DNA of 64,000 nt from Alphaproteobacteria bacterium (GTDB lineage: Bacteria > Pseudomonadota > Alphaproteobacteria > MPNO01 > UBA830): the NCBI GenBank assembly GCA_965243135.1, contig OZ251539.1:1920001-1984000 (forward strand), in the 5' to 3' direction. Below are positions 12,001 to 33,000 of this stretch, in pieces. How positions within the stretch are numbered: the first letter of the stretch is position 1; each line of letters opens with the position of its first letter. A program made the position numbers.

Positions 12001-15000
12001 AGCGCGGCAACCACCACAGTCCGTCTCGCGGTCGAAGATCCCCCAGCAAGACCCCTGTCGCCGCGCCTAGGGAATGGCCGCCGAACAGCAGCCCGAGGCC
12101 CCGCAAGCCGCGTCGCGACGATGTTGGCGATCACCGGGAAGGCGGCAAAGTTGAGAACGCCGAAGAGGGCCGCGAAGAGAAACAGGACGGAGGCCGCGAC
12201 GAACAGCAGCACGACGAAGGCCAGAGCGCGGCCAAAGAACATGCTCGCCAGCAGTCGCGGACGATGGACATGGTCCGCCGAAAACAGGACGACGCCGGCC
12301 CGTGAACCCCGTAAGCGGCGGAGCCCTCGACGAGGGTGAAGCCGCAGGTCAGGGCGTAGGGAATGAAATACGCGTCGATTATCCCGGCCGTCGTGAAGCC
12401 GCACAGCGCGAAGGCGGCGAGCAGCAGCAGAAAAGTCCGTTCCCGGAACAGGGACTTCAGGCGGTCGGACAGGGAACCGTCGTCGGCCGCAGCGGCGGCA
12501 GGCGTCGGCAGGTTTTCCGGCGGCGGCCTGAAACAAAGGACGACCAGCAGGGAGAGCACCGCCGCGCCCAGGTAAGAAGTCCGCCAGCCGAGCGACGCGA
12601 CGCCCAGAAGCGACAGGACCGGAAGCTGTCGCCGCGCCCGAAACGGCGAGGCCGATCGCCAGTCCGCGCCCGCGAACGAAGTAGCGGGAAACCGCGGCCG
12701 TGACCAGCGGCAGCGAGACGGCCGCCCGCCCGCCCACGAGCCCGAACGGAAGGTAGGCGGTTCCGCGCGAAGGCGGTGCCGCCGGCAGCGAGCTGCGCTC
12801 CGTAGCGGTCCCTGCACAGCCACACCATCGGCGACCCGACGCCACCCAGGGCGGCGCCCGCCTGCGCTCCCGTCCACCCGAGTTCCGACTGCCAAGACGG
12901 GAGAACCATGCTCACGGACGACCGCGCGCCGAAAGTGAAGGCCAGCGCGGCGAAGCAGACGACGGCCGGCGCGCGTCTCGCCGGTCACCGGAGTCGCGCT
13001 CCTGCGCCGCGCCGCCCGGCGCGCCGCCGAAAACGGACGGCCGCAACTCCGGAAGAGCCGCGTCGGCAACCAGCGGCCGGTCGACGGGCGGCGTAGGCGT
13101 CGAGGCGCACCGGCTTCACCCACGCGACCTGCTGTCCTTCCGTTCACGCGCCCTCCCCATTTCCGGCAGACGTAAAGCGGCCAGGTGAAAATCGTCGGTG
13201 AGACGCGAAGGTGAACGGCGAAAGGCAGCTCTCGTCGACGTCGAGTTCCTCCCGAAGCTCCCGGGCCCGGCGTCTCCCCGCCGCCGGCCGCCGGGGAATT
13301 CCCCCGCCCTGCCCTGCGGCCGCCGCGCGACGCGCCCGTCGACGAGAGCCGCCGTGACGACGAGAACGACCGCTTCTCCCGCCCCGCGGTGCGGAACCCG
13401 GAGCGCCGCCCGGCCCGCGAAGCCTGCAGGGAGACGCCGCCGGCCCCGAGGCGGCCTCCTCGGCCGGGCGGCCCGTCAAGCCGCGCGACGAACCGGCGGA
13501 ACCGGCTGCCGCCGCAGGCCGAACCGCGGGCGGCGTTCTTTCGCGGAGGCGGCCGTGACGGGAAGCCGTTCAGGCGGGCTCGCAGCCGACGACGTTGCGC
13601 TCCTCGCGGCTGAACTCCACCCCGACCAGGTGGACCGAACGTCCGAAATGGCGGTACTTGTCCGCGTAGCCCTTCTCCCGCAACTGCGCGAGCGCGATCC
13701 CCTCCCGTCCGCGCTCCACCACCTTGAACTCGAACAGGTAGACGCGCCCGCCGGAGCGGATCGCCATGTCGGCGCGCCCCCGGCTGCCGCTGTCCTCGGC
13801 CACCGGCTCGAGGCCCTCCATCAGGAAGCAGCTGTGGATGACGCTCGCGTAGTGGGCCTCGTACACCGGGCTGTTCATGTACCACTGGTGCGGGATGGCG
13901 GCGAAGACGCCGCGGAACAGGGTCTCGACGCGCTTGAAGTCGTTCGCCGCCAGCACCCAGCCGCAGGTTCTCCGTCTCCTCGCGGGCCTCGTCCGGGAGC
14001 AGTTCTTCCAGCAAGGCCTCGCCCAGGCTCTGGCGCACCTCGAGGTTCGGGTAGTCCAGCCGGTAGCGCCCGTCCTCCTCGCCGGCGATGGGTAGAGTCG
14101 AGGACTGGCGCGTTAGCTTTAGGGTCCGGTGGATGTTCCGTCGCTTTCGCTCCGGGCCTCAGTCCGGCTCCCGTGGCCACGTTTCCAGTCCCCGCTCTCC
14201 GAACCGGACGTGCGGATTTCCCGCGCCTCCAGCAGGATCATGCGTCTCGCCCACGGATGGATTGTCAGCGTTCCCAAAAAACGGCCGGTTTTCCGGACCC
14301 GGGAGTTGCACCGTCTCCCATATTTTCCGCCTGTTCTCGCTTTCCAACCCGTCGCCGAGCCTGTTTACGCCTCGACGACCCCGGCCTCTCGACCGGGTTC
14401 CTTCGCTTCTGCATGTGACGCTTCCGGGATCTCTGGCATGTAGTCGGTTGTTAGGCATAGCCAATCTCCGAGCCCTTCTCCCTTGCGGCGCCCTTCCTCG
14501 CCTGAGGCCCCTTTCCTCCGCCGGCGTTACCCGGCTTCTCCGGTACTACGGGCCTCTCCGCCACCCTGCCGGCCCGGCCTGCCCCTCGCGGGGTTCCGGT
14601 TGACTCGTGCGCGTCACCGACAGGGCTTCCCGTGTTGCTGCTTCCTTCATCTTCCATGCGTGCCGACATCACTACCCCGGCGGAAACGGTCGGTGCTTTT
14701 GTCGTTCTCTTCCCGACCGTCGGCGGCTTTCCCCTAACCTCAGGAGGGTCAGCTTCCGCATTGACCGTTTCGAGGCCTGCTCAATGTTCACTACTCGTTT
14801 CGGCCCGCGTGTTCGCTGAGCGGCCTTCGCCGCCCTTTCCCAGAGTGCTTCAGCCTACATCGTTACCTCCGTAAACCGCCCTGGCCGCTACCAACCGGAA
14901 CGACAGTTGTTGGGTGGGATTCGCACCCACCAGAAGAAAGCGCCTTTCCACGGCGCACTGAGGTAGCCGGTCTGGAACAGAAGCGCCTGGACCGACATCC

Positions 15001-30000: not shown

Positions 30001-33000
30001 CCTGTCCACGTCGAAGGTCGAGAGCAGGCTCTCGCTGCCGATCATGCCGTCCAGGCGGGGAGTGGGCAGGTTGCGGCGCGCCAGCGTCTCGATCAGGAAG
30101 GTCGGCGTGCCGCTCTCGAACCAGTAGTTGCCGAACCTGCGCTCGGCGAACAGCAGCAGGAGGCCGAACGGGTTGTAGAGCCTCTCCGGCCCGCGCCAGT
30201 TGTAGCCGTTGTACCAGCGCCGGATCTCGTCCCGGTCCAGGCCCTCGAGTTCCGGGGCGAAGACCGCGTCCAGTTCCGCGTCCGTGCAGCCGCAGATGTC
30301 CGAGAACTCCGGCACAAGCGTGATGTCGCGCAGGTTGTTCAGGCCCGAGAACAGGCCCGCCTTCGAGAATTTGCTCACCCCCGTCAGAAAAACGAAACGG
30401 AGCTGCTCGTCGCAGTCCTTGATCACCCCGTACAGGTCGCGCAGGAAGCCGCGGTTGGCCAGCGCCAGTTCCCGGTCGCCGAGCGCGTCCAGGATCGGCT
30501 TGTCGTATTCGTCCACCAGCACGACCGCCCGCTGCCCGGTGCGCTCGTGCAGTTCGGAGATCAGATGGTGAAGGCGGTCGGAGGCGTCCGGGTAGCCGCA
30601 TTGGACGCCGGCGCGCTTTTCGGCGGCGTCGAGCTGCATCATCGCGTTCCTGTGCAGCCGGTCGGGGACGACGAAATTGCGCCCGCCGAAGCTGAGTCGC
30701 ACGACCGGATGGCGCATCGACCAGTCCCACCTGCCGTGCACGGCGAGGCCCCGGAACAGCTCCTCGCTTCCCTCGAACAGCTTCTGCAGCGTGTCCACGA
30801 GGAGGGTCTTGCCGAACCGGCGCGGACGCGACAGGAAATAGTACTTGCCCCCTTCGACGAGGCGGCGCACATGGTCCGTCTTGTCGACGTAGTAGCAGTT
30901 CATCCCCCGGATCTCCCGGAGGGAGGAAAAGCCGATCGGAAGCATGCGTTTCGTCATTCGAAGAGAGTAGGCCGCCGCGCCGGAGCCGTCAAGAAGTCGG
31001 CGGCGGCAGGCCTGTCCGGGTCCCCTGGCGCGGCAAGCAGTCGGCAGTTTCCGCGGCGGCACGGGCGGCCCGTCAAGCCGCGCGACGAACCGGCGGAACC
31101 AGCTGCCGCCGCAGGCCGAACCCGCGTGGCGTTCTTTTGCGGAGGCGGCCGTGACGGGAAGCCGTTCAGGCGGCCTCGCAGTCGAAGCCGACGACGTTGC
31201 GCTCCTCGCGGCTGAACTCCACCCCGATCAGGTGGACCGAACGCCCGAGGTGGCGGTACTTGTCCGCATAGCCCTTCTCCCGCAACTGCGCGAGCGCGGT
31301 CCCCTCCCGTCCGCGCTCCACCACCTTGAACTCGAACAGGTAGACGCGCCCGCCGGCGCGGACCGCCATGTCGGCCCGCCCCCGGCTGCCGCTGTCCTCG
31401 GCCACCGGCTCGACGCCCTCCATCAGGAAGCAGCTGTGGATGACGCTCGCGTAGTGGGCCTCGTACTTCGCGACGGGGCTGTTCATGTACCATTGGTGCG
31501 GGGCGAAGACGCCGCGGAACAGGGTCTCGATGCGCTCGAAATCGTTCGCCTCCAGCAGTTCGCCCAGCCGCAGGCGCCCCGTCTTCTTGCGCGCCTCGAC
31601 CGGGAGCAGTTCTCCCAGCAAGGCCTCGCCCAGGCTCCGGCGCACCTCGAGGTTCGGGTAGTCCAGCCGGTAGTGCCCGTCCTCCTCGCCGGCGATGGTG
31701 AGGTAGCCGGTCTGGAACAGAAGCGCCTCGACCGAGATACTGTCCACGTCGAAGGTCGAGAGCAGGCTCTCGCTGCCGATCATGCCGTCCAGGTCGGGAG
31801 TGGGCAGGTCGCGGCGCGTCAGCGTCTCGACCAGGAAGGTCGGCGTGCCGCTCTGGAACCAGTACGGGCGGAACTCGCGCCGTTGAAACAGCAGCAGGAG
31901 GCCGAACGGGTTGTAGACCCTCTCCGGCCCGCGCCAGTTGTAGCCGTTGTACCAGCGGCGGATCTCGTCCCGGTCCAGGCCCTCGAGTTCCGGGGCGAAG
32001 ACCGCGTCCAGCTCCGCGTCCGTGCAGCCGCAAATGTCCGAGAACTCCGGCGCCAGCGTGATGTCGTTCAGGTTGTTCAGGCCAGAGAACAGGCCCGCTT
32101 TCGAGAATTTGCTCACCCCCGTCAGGAAAACGAAACGGAGCTGCCTGTCGCAGTCCTTGATCATCGCGTAGAAGCCGCGCAGGAAGTCGCGGTTGGCCGC
32201 CGCCAGTTCCCGGTTGCCGAGCACGTCCAGAATCGGCTTGTCGTATTCGTCCACCAGAACGACCGCCCGCTGTCCGGTGCGCTCGTGCAGCGTCCTTATC
32301 AGGTGCCGGAAACGGACCGCCGCCCCGGCGGGACCCGGTTCGAGGCCGGCCAGCCGCTCCGTCTCCTCCAACTGGTCTTCCACGTTTCCCCGAATGAGAT
32401 CCGGGGAGTCGAAATGGCCCCCGCCGAAGCTGATCCGCACGACAGGATGGCGCGCCGACCAGTCCCACTTGTCGTGCACGGCGAGGCCCCGGAACAGCTC
32501 CTCGCTTCCTTCGAACAACTCCTGCAGCGTGTCCACCAGCAGGGTCTTGCCGAACCGGCGCGGACGCGACAGGAAATAGTAATCGCCCTCTTCGACGAGG
32601 CGGCGCACATGGTCCGTCTTGTCGACGTAGTAGCAGTTCCTCGTCCGGATTTTCCGGAGGGAGGTCATGCCGATCGGAAGCATGCGTTTCGCCATCGGAA
32701 GAGATTAGGCCGCCGCGCCGGAGCCGTCAAGAAGTCGGCGGCGGGGGTGAGCAGGCCATGAGCGTTTGGTACCGGACATATCGTCTGTTACTGACAGCCT
32801 AAAAAAGCCGAGCGCGCCCAAGAAATGACGTTAGCCAACCGGTCTCGGACCCTTGAACTCTTGCGGCGGCGGGCCGAGGCGAGCAAGGTTCCGAAATGAG
32901 ATCCCTGCGAAGCGCTACACAGACGCTCGGCAATCTCCGTCGCGAGGCGGGCTTCGCAGCGAGTCAAGCGTCCGCCCCCTCGTCCAAGGCCGCCGTGCGG

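Follow-up and report, generated by a model that had tools for sequence, protein, structure and literature searches.

About 100 intact, stop-free DUF1703 genes are carried on a single alphaproteobacterial chromosome. They are explained best, and somewhat more probably than by all other readings together, as a lineage-specific birth-and-death family of self-promoted, ATP-gated, stand-alone nucleases that probably acts as a conflict system. DUF1703 expansions have been published before, with 25 paralogs in Cardinium, and the present genome is an extreme new case. What is new here is a conserved promoter-like box set directly before the ATG, the presence within arrays of co-duplicated neighbours that have decayed, purifying selection on each copy, and the homing of a group II intron into the family. 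The chromosome thus offers uncommonly rich natural material for testing what a widespread gene does.

All coordinates refer to the analysed window of 64,000 nt, whose position 1 is position 1,920,001 of contig OZ251539.1 (Alphaproteobacteria bacterium, GCA_965243135.1). Copies were counted across the whole 6.1-Mb genome (G000) by tblastn with a reference copy from the window, P0001, and the 246 resulting HSPs were merged into 176 pieces. Among these, 98 are full-length, single-HSP and stop-free, encode 505–525 aa and, in 97 cases, start with ATG. The remaining 78 (44%) are broken, 25 being frameshifted while covering at least 480 residues and 53 partial. Splicing of a group II intron would restore two more copies, giving 98–100 in total. 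Under a 5-kb gap rule the pieces fall into 79 loci, 58 of them with an intact copy. These counts agree with a first-pass annotation of the genome, which had given about 96 intact genes in 79 loci. P0001 matches PF09820 (1.5e-61) and PF08011 (7.7e-16); the two domains, reported earlier from four of four copies, were detected in 14 of 14 and 12 of 14 scanned copies, and both copies without PF08011 are outliers at 42% identity. No two of the 98 copies are identical: amino acid identity to the nearest neighbour is 92% at the median and never exceeds 97.7%, and identity within one subfamily is mostly 80–95%. The genome as a whole is very repeat-rich (2,304 of 10,172 600-bp windows have at least two matches), and its other repeat families reach about 43 copies.

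The interval 13570–32695 had been described as an array of eight units. It contains seven genes, six intact and one split (Table 1); the supposed broken units at 13573–14116 and 14957–15949 are one gene that was counted twice because a group II intron divides it. The intron splits codon T333 behind its first base, and the exon junction agrees with the uninterrupted sequence.

Table 1. Coordinates of DUF1703 genes, boxes and neighbouring features (window positions)
Feature	Position	Strand	Details
Frameshifted DUF1703 copy	919–2425	-	Two HSPs, residues 1–117 and 120–509; box 2426–2460
3' fragment of DUF1703 copy	3689–4978	-	Residues ~316–509; a copy of the group II intron at 14092–14958 precedes it
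Further intact DUF1703 gene	8717–10252	-	511 aa; box 10253–10287
Exon 2 of intron-split DUF1703 gene	13570–14091	-	Residues ~333–509; frameshifted
Group II intron, ORF-less	14092–14958	-	867 nt; RF02003, 75.1 bits; 5' GTGCG ... 3' CTAC
Exon 1 of intron-split DUF1703 gene	14959–15949	-	Residues 1 to ~332; box 15950–15984
Partial ArgJ duplicate	16098–17348	-	Profile positions 80–356 of 377
Intact DUF1703 gene	17991–19529	-	512 aa; box 19530–19564
Intact DUF1703 gene	20962–22497	-	511 aa; box 22498–22532
Intact DUF1703 gene	23649–25184	-	511 aa; box 25185–25219
Decayed MFS transporter pseudogene	25472–26290	-	4 HSPs, frames shifting
Intact DUF1703 gene	26546–28081	-	511 aa; box 28082–28116
Decayed MFS transporter pseudogene	28369–29260	-	5 HSPs, frames shifting (frames by arithmetic on HSP starts)
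Intact DUF1703 gene	29422–30957	-	511 aa; box 30958–30992
Tail of one unit joined to head of next	30958–31165	-	No stable or special fold (z -0.13); no terminal inverted repeats
Intact DUF1703 gene P0001	31166–32695	-	509 aa; STAND/ORC-like NTPase module + PD-(D/E)XK nuclease (Pfam and model)
Promoter-like box of P0001	32696–32730	-	TTGACG-N17-TAATCT-N6; abuts ATG, putatively leaderless
Intact MFS transporter gene	33162–34505	-	Parent of decayed MFS copies in array
Full ArgJ	34952–36355		Outside array
Further intact DUF1703 gene, second subfamily	62003–63550	-	67.5% identical to P0001

The array grew by segmental duplication, in which the neighbouring MFS and ArgJ genes came along and later decayed. 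Two adjacent units are still 95.6% identical across 2,774 nt, spacer included. Insertion of bare cassettes is not how the array arose. At 30 of the 38 multi-copy loci all copies share one strand, and the family as a whole expanded mainly by tandem and segmental duplication. The repeated unit proposed earlier, consisting of box, ORF and short tail, holds as a region of shared similarity, since pairwise similarity mostly stops 30–55 nt upstream of the ATG and 0–60 nt past the stop codon; the repeat itself is usually longer than this cassette, with array units spaced mostly 2.7–3.0 kb apart because decayed MFS copies intervene.

Once formed, paralogs recombine heavily, swapping segments by recombination or gene conversion. 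When gene thirds are compared, the nearest neighbour stays the same in just 5, 22 and 8 of the 98 copies; mosaics across subfamilies account for 24 copies, and PHI values of 0.524 (against 0.698 ± 0.005) and 0.581 (against 0.809 ± 0.004) were not reached in any of 1000 permutations. Some copies die through frameshift, truncation or intron invasion.

Each intact gene possesses its own conserved -35/-10-like box, in line with the earlier description of the genes as separately promoted. In 94 of the 98 copies a TAnnnT element stops precisely 6 nt short of the ATG, and 93 of these also have TTG at a spacing of 16–18 nt; among 20,000 random ATGs, 320 have the TAnnnT geometry and 43 retain it with TTG added. 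The box TTGACG-N17-TAC(C/T)CT, previously counted in 114 copies, gave 108 matches under a stricter pattern, every one directly upstream of a family copy on the same strand. Outside this genome, the arrangement recurs in 34 of 94 copies from several phyla. A sigma-70 scan of the array interval returned 0 sites, and the -10 element TACYCT agrees with TATAAT at only 3 of 6 positions. Judged from its sequence and placement, the box is a candidate promoter; the mRNA would then be leaderless, and each cassette would run on its own box, needing nothing from its neighbours.

The protein was modelled from a 109-sequence alignment with a mean pLDDT of 94.1 and a pTM of 0.92, and the description of the model as poor outside the nuclease region no longer applies. 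At the level of this model, the single protein of ~511 aa begins with a STAND/ORC-like NTPase module (residues 1 to ~360), in which a nucleotide-binding domain is joined by a helical domain and a winged helix, and ends in one C-terminal PD-(D/E)XK nuclease. The best structural matches to residues 4–357 are 2fna (Z 16.0) and 2qen (Z 15.3), with 281 aligned residues, followed by plant NLRs (Z 13.9 and 13.7) and Avs3 and CED-4 (both Z 11.6); Foldseek concurs. The nuclease resembles CinB (Z 10.1 over residues 297–506) and CidB (Z 9.6), the same nearest folds as reported earlier at Z 11.2 and 10.8. Catalytic residues, formerly called invariant in 27 copies, are conserved in no fewer than 92 of the 98 copies for each motif: GK[TS], D149, E433 and E455 in all 98, K457 in 96 and D442 in 92.

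Purifying selection maintains every intact copy individually. Across 49 independent pairs pN/pS is 0.419, and 162 of 509 codons have no non-synonymous change. The array provides an internal control, as its co-duplicated MFS genes lie in 4 and 5 out-of-frame pieces and 6 of its 7 DUF1703 genes are intact. Omega is 0.33 and 0.35 on terminal branches and 0.65 and 0.62 on internal ones, estimates obtained by parsimony on a tree whose assumptions recombination violates. Eleven of 509 codons, all within residues 2–272, exceed the neutral non-synonymous expectation after Bonferroni correction, in a test whose use of pairs picked for low dS lowered that expectation. An omega of ~0.4 is high for a bacterial gene, and no 20-residue window goes above 1; both count against our preferred explanation.

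By analogy with STAND/NLR-type conflict proteins, the binding and hydrolysis of ATP probably control assembly, and assembly in turn the nuclease. Hypervariable positions of the NTPase module may set specificity, and the ~100 diverged paralogs would constitute a conflict repertoire, serving either defence against invading DNA or addiction-like self-preservation. Counting against such a role, the genes lie outside defence islands: the 59 loci surveyed gave 122 flanking ORFs, of which only 8 resemble mobile-element or defence genes, and the remainder are housekeeping or metabolic.

Solo copies between housekeeping genes call for more than duplication, and the foremost alternative, which we regard as unlikely, is a selfish gene-sized mobile element. 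Its own ATPase-nuclease would cut target DNA, the cassette being copied in during repair, and copies would persist because only intact ones spread or because copy loss harms the cell. Several observations are consistent with this: the unit is discrete and self-promoted, it occupies 79 loci mostly between housekeeping genes, and broken pieces accompany the intact copies. Distant pairs at 95% nucleotide identity diverge ~50 nt upstream of the ATG and 4–10 nt past the stop, although gene conversion, halting where homology ends, gives equally sharp limits. At two tRNA-Thr loci the unit is missing from relatives, and both earlier length differences were reproduced (2,329 nt in G000 against 147 nt in G003; ~2,220 nt against ~179 nt in G004). 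Matches were found in 5 of 41 genomes, G000 included (5 of 31 in the first-pass annotation); G004 copies are 55–58% identical to P0001, close to the 57–58% given before. Close relatives, at 52–63% identity, are found in MAGs of many phyla that are intermixed in the tree, and relatives lie on 60 of 72,556 plasmid records. A DUF1703 homologue is also described in the Tribolium Medea selfish element (PMC6387759, in the portion available). The proposed independent expansion in each genome agrees with a clade, of support 1.0, that unites 96 of the 98 G000 copies, but it is not secure, because gene conversion among these heavily recombining paralogs too yields genome-specific clades.

Against mobility, no copies are identical, and the joined intergenic region has no special fold. 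The lack of transposon ends noted earlier was borne out, with neither terminal inverted repeats nor target duplications found; the unique flanking direct repeats examined, 1,711–1,829 nt apart, occur where another, broken copy is also present, and fit remnants of tandem duplication better than target duplication. Moreover, the stronger constraint on terminal than on internal branches is the reverse of neutral decay after insertion.

It is improbable that the copies lack a present function and owe their open reading frames chiefly to frequent gene conversion within a large family, the genome being repeat-rich and poorly purged. The strong recombination signal, the abundance of repeats, the proportion of broken pieces and the relaxed omega fit such a scenario, but conversion alone cannot produce the observed pN/pS or the 162 unchanged codons, the catalytic motifs are invariant or almost so, the box is conserved, and the MFS genes duplicated within the same array have decayed. 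More improbable still is a role as effectors that leave the bacterium for a eukaryotic host, which has been proposed for the Cardinium paralogs and is suggested by analogy with CifB nucleases. The resemblance of the nuclease fold to CinB and CidB and the occurrence of related copies in MAGs of taxa that we take to be typical of marine sponge microbiomes would favour export, as would the signal peptides predicted in 10 of 25 Cardinium paralogs (PMC6387759, in the portion available). Here, however, the nuclease module is single, there is no partner gene, and the N-terminus (M-x-K-R-M-L-P-I-G...) is predicted to lie inside the folded NTPase domain, with pLDDT 92–98 in the first blocks. That the copy number is an assembly artefact of collapsed or duplicated repeats is scarcely credible: the single contig is repeat-rich and short contigs of four public runs fragment across the region, but the 98 copies all differ from one another, their flanks differ, and each of the four runs has coverage in all 30 bins of the 20-kb stretch.

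The favoured reading, a birth-and-death family of conflict nucleases, has its closest precedent in Cardinium hertigii cCpun. According to the available portion of PMC6387759, that symbiont genome carries many paralogs of the same PF09820 + PF08011 family, with genome-specific clades, intragenic recombination between paralogs and an inferred horizontal origin. The same portion gives 25 copies at 39% average identity, against 98–100 intact copies mostly at 80–95% within a subfamily in G000, and at least 10 DUF1703 copies in only 9.8% of species. For residues 4–357, the best structural likeness is to the archaeal PF01637-type AAA+ ATPases SSO1545 (2fna) and PABY2304 (2qen), at just 10–14% sequence identity, and their chains of 350–352 residues leave the nuclease domain uncovered. 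The DUF1703 N-terminus was earlier linked to PF01637 (PMC1913061); a Pfam search gave no PF01637 match at E up to 0.01. Wolbachia CifB proteins align through the PD-(D/E)XK domain and the preceding helical region; they are described as having a CifA partner and two modules of the nuclease type, and as lacking an AAA-type ATPase (PMC6387759, available portion). The label "CifB-core-like" therefore fits only the C-terminal nuclease fold, the G000 family having one nuclease module, no partner gene and a STAND/ORC-type NTPase in its first ~360 residues. Rpn/YhgA-like PD-(D/E)XK proteins are similar in being encoded by multi-copy, mobile-looking nuclease genes without transposon ends; they belong to another Pfam family, have no ATPase module and reach much lower copy numbers in a genome. 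This family ("Transposase_31") has been named together with DUF1703 (PMC1913061). The modelled protein has no repeat sensor, the domain by which Avs and NLR proteins are defined, and a PADLOC search matched no known defence family (sole match GajA, E 0.035); both speak against the favoured reading. Its effector, unlike theirs, is C-terminal. STAND/NLR ATPases (Avs3/Avs4, CED-4/Apaf-1, plant NLRs) nevertheless share a similar NTPase-helical-winged-helix module (Z 11.6–13.9) joined to a nuclease effector, as in the G000 family. The evolution of the family also resembles that of the NLR clusters of plants and fungi, which consist of clustered, recombining, birth-and-death paralogs.

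Window positions 13570..32695, a stretch of a window with a G+C content of 64-73%, carry six full-length, stop-free DUF1703 genes, all on the minus strand, located by tblastn with the reference copy P0001. The first-pass annotation had described this interval as an eight-unit array, a count that is not sustained. Two of the presumed units are pieces of a single gene split by a group II intron, which reads ...GGCTACCTCA / GTGCG ... CTAC / CCATCGCC... (slashes mark the exon limits), and the joined exon ends reproduce the uninterrupted sequence of P0001. The interval therefore holds seven DUF1703 genes, six of them intact. 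Over 13201-33200, the contigs of four public sequencing runs (X1-X4) are short community-assembly pieces, many of whose joints connect paralogous places and do not read as excision or insertion.

DUF1703 copies, group II introns and reverse-transcriptase matches (window coordinates unless C1, the contig of the source genome G000, is named)
Feature	Location	Strand	Basis or remark
Intact DUF1703 copy	17994-19529	minus	tblastn with P0001
Intact DUF1703 copy	20965-22497	minus	tblastn with P0001
Intact DUF1703 copy	23652-25184	minus	tblastn with P0001
Intact DUF1703 copy	26549-28081	minus	tblastn with P0001
Intact DUF1703 copy	29425-30957	minus	tblastn with P0001
Intact DUF1703 copy P0001, 509 aa	31166-32695	minus	tblastn 31169-32695
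Two DUF1703 pieces of the intron-split gene	13573-14116 and 14957-15949		tblastn with P0001
ORF-less group II intron, ~867 nt	14092-14958	minus	Rfam RF02003
Further copy of the group II intron	4213-4978	minus	
More group II intron copies	C1 1150706-1151546, 3618472-3619305, 4119212-4120045 and others		
Reverse-transcriptase matches in enlarged introns	C1 4048023-4048487, 2665984-2668076, 4811561-4811710, 1990918-1991343, 5953944-5954201		PF00078

The genes have been duplicated together with their surroundings. One adjacent pair of units is 95.6% identical across 2,774 nt, spacer included, and a partial ArgJ gene (16098-17348) duplicates the full ArgJ at 34952-36355. Two spacers of 1.3 kb each (25185-26548 and 28082-29424) are without coding periodicity; against the intact MFS gene at 33162-34505 they give 4 and 5 separate HSPs, whose start coordinates fall in changing frames, and they are decayed MFS copies. 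Tandem or segmental duplication is the main process by which DUF1703 copies are born, and the co-duplicated neighbours, having decayed while the DUF1703 reading frames stayed open, provide a neutral control within the array. The remaining spacers at 19530-20964 and 22498-23651 showed no coding periodicity and no Pfam match that would point to hidden genes; parts of them recur 2-40 times in the genome.

The source genome was searched as a single contig of 6,103,318 bp by tblastn with P0001, and the 246 HSPs obtained merged into 176 pieces: 98 full-length, single-HSP and stop-free, 25 covering at least 480 residues but frameshifted, and 53 partial. Together these pieces take up 3.56% of the genome (217,573 bp). 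They fall into 79 loci (5-kb gap), of which 58 contain an intact copy and 41 are solo, and all copies share one strand in 30 of the 38 multi-copy loci. The intact proteins measure 505-525 aa, begin with ATG in 97 of 98 cases and form two subfamilies of 50 and 46 members, plus two outliers. Amino-acid identity lies mostly at 80-95% within subfamilies and 60-70% between them, with 87 of 509 columns invariant. Identity to the nearest neighbour has a median of 92% and reaches 97.7% at most, so every intact copy is distinct.

The genome as a whole is highly repeat-rich, since 2,304 of 10,172 windows of 600 bp have two or more matches. Another family of about 43 copies is exemplified by a locus at C1 2796300-2800800 (L153), where a 439-aa ORF without a Pfam match neighbours one of 435 aa that weakly matches a DNA methylase. 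Two dispersed short repeats occur both near DUF1703 copies and elsewhere, for example upstream of the window copies at 32771, 22573 and 10328. A 26-nt dispersed element, which resembles the end of a mobile element, has 29 matches in both orientations, 12 of them near copies; for the motif GCGCAAACGCCTC there are 157 genomic matches, 28 near copies.

Selection analysis indicates constraint on the protein. Median dN/dS within the two subfamilies is 0.44 and 0.47, and across 49 independent nearest pairs (2,543 synonymous and 3,253 non-synonymous differences) pN/pS is 0.419, a value to be read in the knowledge that pairs were picked for low dS. In 20-residue windows the ratio ranges from 0.16 to 0.78 and never exceeds 1. 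By parsimony on FastTree trees, whose assumptions recombination violates, omega is about 0.33 and 0.35 on terminal branches against about 0.65 and 0.62 on internal ones, the reverse of the pattern predicted for transposon copies that decay neutrally once inserted. A crude site test found 162 of 509 codons without any non-synonymous change and, with Bonferroni correction, 11 at which such change exceeds the neutral expectation (positions 2, 18, 36, 76, 97, 103, 107, 184, 210, 271 and 272, in the NTPase module).

The history of the family is reticulate. The nearest neighbour agrees between two gene thirds in only 5, 22 and 8 of 98 copies for the three comparisons, and in 24 copies the first third is closest to the other subfamily. 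The PHI statistic is 0.524 against 0.698±0.005 and 0.581 against 0.809±0.004, values as low arising in 0 of 1000 permutations. Exchange of segments among the paralogs is clear, and gene conversion can produce both the sharp limits of similarity between units and the genome-specific clades.

The intron, which homes into the most conserved motif of the family, is an additional, independent indicator of the time over which the family has been large. At least eight DUF1703 copies carry it at the same codon in sense orientation, and the junction inside the conserved LLFQTGYLT motif is identical in five copies; in two intron-bearing copies the spliced ORFs are intact, at 507 and 508 aa. Within the window, an Rfam match to group II intron domains D1-D4 lies at 14793-14932, and the 840-nt insert yields 31 HSPs in the genome. 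The genome has six RVT_1 (PF00078) matches, every one partial and five of them inside enlarged intron copies, so no intact intron-encoded protein was seen; a 481-aa ORF inside an enlarged copy has no Pfam match.

Each unit has a compact anatomy. In pairwise blastn, similarity mostly ends 30-55 nt 5' of the ATG and 0-60 nt 3' of the stop codon, in distant unit pairs of about 95% nucleotide identity it takes in about 50 nt before the ATG and 4-10 nt past the stop, and the shortest tandem period, 1,644 bp, leaves about 110 nt between ORFs. Directly upstream of the ATG stands the element TTGACGG-N17-TAC(C/T)CT-N6. In 94 of 98 copies a TAnnnT hexamer ends exactly 6 nt 5' of the ATG, and 93 of the 94 also have TTG at 16-18 nt spacing; among 20,000 random ATGs, 320 have TAnnnT at that place and 43 also the spaced TTG. 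A stricter pattern has 108 genomic matches, every one on the same strand upstream of a copy. The box may act as a promoter; with this spacing, transcription would begin at the ATG or beside it and yield a leaderless mRNA. A sigma-70 scan of the interval returned no promoter-like sites, because TACYCT matches TATAAT at just 3 of 6 positions, and terminators were not in excess. The leaderless-type geometry also occurs in 34 of 94 foreign copies; a self-promoted, probably leaderless cassette that recurs in several phyla suggests how a DUF1703 gene can work on arrival in a new host.

The units were also compared with insertion sequences and transposons. Flanking direct repeats of at least 12 nt accompany 31 of 98 copies against 4.9% of controls. 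The unique repeats examined are separated by 1,711-1,829 nt and occur where a locus also contains another, broken copy, which identifies them as remnants of tandem duplication and led to their rejection as target duplications; the others belong to dispersed repeats. Shared sequence stops at the box and shortly past the stop codon. Terminal inverted repeats were absent from the ends of the one unit tested, no near-identical copies from recent movement exist (no pair exceeds the 97.7% maximum), and Pfam gave no transposase domain, reporting PF09820 and PF08011 alone. An integron gene cassette is rejected, as there is no attC-like fold (intergenic z -0.13, no better than shuffles) and each unit has its own box.

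Pfam matched 108 of 122 flanking ORFs at 59 loci, nearly all housekeeping or metabolic (DnaA, GidA, thymidylate synthase, fumarase, tRNA synthetases and EF-P, among others), and just 8 were mobile-element or defence-like. In the window, a ThsB-like TIR ORF (10374-10826, plus strand; PF08937, 6.8e-07) lies directly 5' of an 8xMP membrane-protein ORF (10830-11336, plus strand; PF24838, 1.9e-29); adjoining the DUF1703 copy at 8717-10252, the two may form a small defence pair. Further along are tandem giant ORFs of 1,609 and 1,653 aa (37511-42340 and 42579-47540, both minus) with C-terminal autotransporter beta-domains, and a stretch of lower G+C (0.58-0.62; 48001-52000) that adjoins a DDE_3 transposase ORF (52498-53145, plus).

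The earlier observation that relatives lack the unit at two tRNA-Thr genes was borne out. At one, 2,329 nt in the source genome compare with 147 nt in the relative G003; at the other, the source genome has about 2,220 nt where G004 has about 179 nt. The intergenic DNA of relatives is too diverged for alignment to the exact insertion junctions. A third relative, G002, has about 1.13 kb at the locus compared with G004. Matches to the family occur in 5 of 41 relatives, the source genome included, and in 8 of 401 genomes sampled from the class, where first-look candidate counts were 196 for the source genome, then 31, 20 and 19. Beyond the class, proteins at 52-63% identity are found in metagenome-assembled genome records titled Gammaproteobacteria, Pseudomonadales, Arenicellales, Binatia, Latescibacterota, Vicinamibacterales, Gemmatimonadota, Poribacteria, Poriferihabitaceae, Spirochaetia and Alphaproteobacteria, taxa typical of marine sponge microbiomes; ten of these genomes each contain between 4 and 23 PF09820 matches. 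A tree of 194 sequences groups 96 copies of the source genome in one clade (support 1.0) and mixes foreign copies across phyla, with Poribacteria and Gemmatimonadota, for instance, inside a Latescibacterota clade. Of 72,556 plasmid records, 60 carry a relative. The closest, 56.9% identical, is encoded on a plasmid of Azotobacter chroococcum (NZ_CP066312.1, 7965-17500) near toxin-antitoxin genes (RelE/ParE, XRE and HipA); its TACAAT lies 28 nt 5' of the ATG, so that gene is not leaderless there. A phage search matched only 23 unannotated short 'Bacteriophage sp.' contigs.

At the protein level, PF09820 (AAA-ATPase_like) scored above the gathering cut-off in all 14 copies scanned (137-208 bits against 26.1) and PF08011 (PDDEXK_9) in 12 of 14; the two outliers, at 42% identity, had no PF08011 match at E up to 0.001. 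Both domains exceed the Pfam cut-offs in P0001 and in all six further intact window copies scanned. The non-canonical Walker A RPRRFGK[ST] and Walker B DEYD belong to the DUF1703 motifs described in PMC1913061, and both are kept: R44, P45, R46, F48, G49, K50 and T/S51 in 98 of 98 copies and R47 in 96, D149 in all and E150, Y151 and D152 in 96. The PD-(D/E)XK motif (E ... D ... E-x-K) is retained as E433 (98/98), D442 (92/98), E455 (98/98) and K457 (96/98). By the features tested, the copies are DUF1703 members with predicted ATPase and nuclease activity.

NCBIfam gave no match for the protein, and no solved structure was retrieved by sequence search. An AlphaFold2 model built on an alignment of 109 diverse relatives reached a mean pLDDT of 94.1 and a pTM of 0.92, and was compared with 48,161 chains by VIA-align. 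The best matches were 2fna (SSO1545; Z 16.0, model residues 4-356) and 2qen (PABY2304; Z 15.3, residues 4-357), and the NTPase module also matched BrxC (Z 11.7) and ORC2 (Z 11.3). Foldseek was concordant, with Cdc6/Orc1, CED-4, 2qen and CidB among its matches. The protein is modelled as a STAND/ORC-like switch followed by one nuclease, without a repeat sensor; a two-copy complex prediction (residues 1-499 each) gave no verdict (score 0.00).

We are confident in the evolutionary anatomy of the family, and infer an ATP-gated nuclease in a conflict role. A bolder and rather unlikely proposal is that the roughly 100 paralogs form a germline-encoded recognition repertoire of minimal NLR-like proteins, in which a STAND-type switch is wired to a nuclease. 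Gene conversion and selection at a handful of NTPase-module surface positions would diversify them, each would be expressed from its own leaderless cassette, and as a cassette the gene would also be able to pass between phyla living in a common habitat. If true, this would give bacteria an equivalent of the NLR clusters of plants and fungi, built from a family that has awaited a function since 2007. DUF1703 is very large, with 17,545 representative clusters at E up to 0.001, and this genome is an extreme natural experiment of about 100 intact copies. Since many diverged, functional-looking paralogs share one background, conserved catalytic-core positions and the 11 fast-changing codons can be read directly, and the paralogs lend themselves to parallel cloning and assays of activity, toxicity and phage challenge.

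Among known systems, plant NLRs (Z 13.9 and 13.7) and Avs3 and CED-4 (Z 11.6) align with the candidate STAND-type module of NTPase, helical and winged-helix parts, but ORC/Cdc6 and PF01637-type ATPases score equally or higher. The repeat sensor of STAND/Avs proteins (TPR, LRR or WD40) is absent here, as the protein ends with the nuclease at residue 509 in the model and has two Pfam domains only. Curated PADLOC defence models returned only GajA (E 0.035, 10.9 bits). The CifB-like character proposed at first holds in part: the fold of the nuclease region is nearest to CinB (Z 10.1, model residues 297-506) and CidB (Z 9.6, residues 296-509). CifB, however, has two tandem PD-(D/E)XK modules and an adjacent cifA-type partner, whereas each protein here has a single PF08011 stretch and one modelled nuclease domain, and the short gap between ORFs at the shortest tandem period holds no partner gene. 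By the features tested, the family is not CifB, Avs, an insertion sequence or an integron cassette. Our literature search turned up no report of so large an expansion, nor of one in sponge-type symbionts, although supplementary tables of comparative-genomics studies may list the family. The domain architecture was described in 2007 (PMC1913061), and PMC6387759 reports 25 recombining paralogs in Cardinium cCpun and at least 10 copies in 9.8% of species. Beside that expansion, the one in the present genome is much larger and younger. Cassette anatomy, an internal neutral control, per-copy constraint and an intron are its additions to the known picture of DUF1703; the feature is real, and it is an extreme example of something already known.
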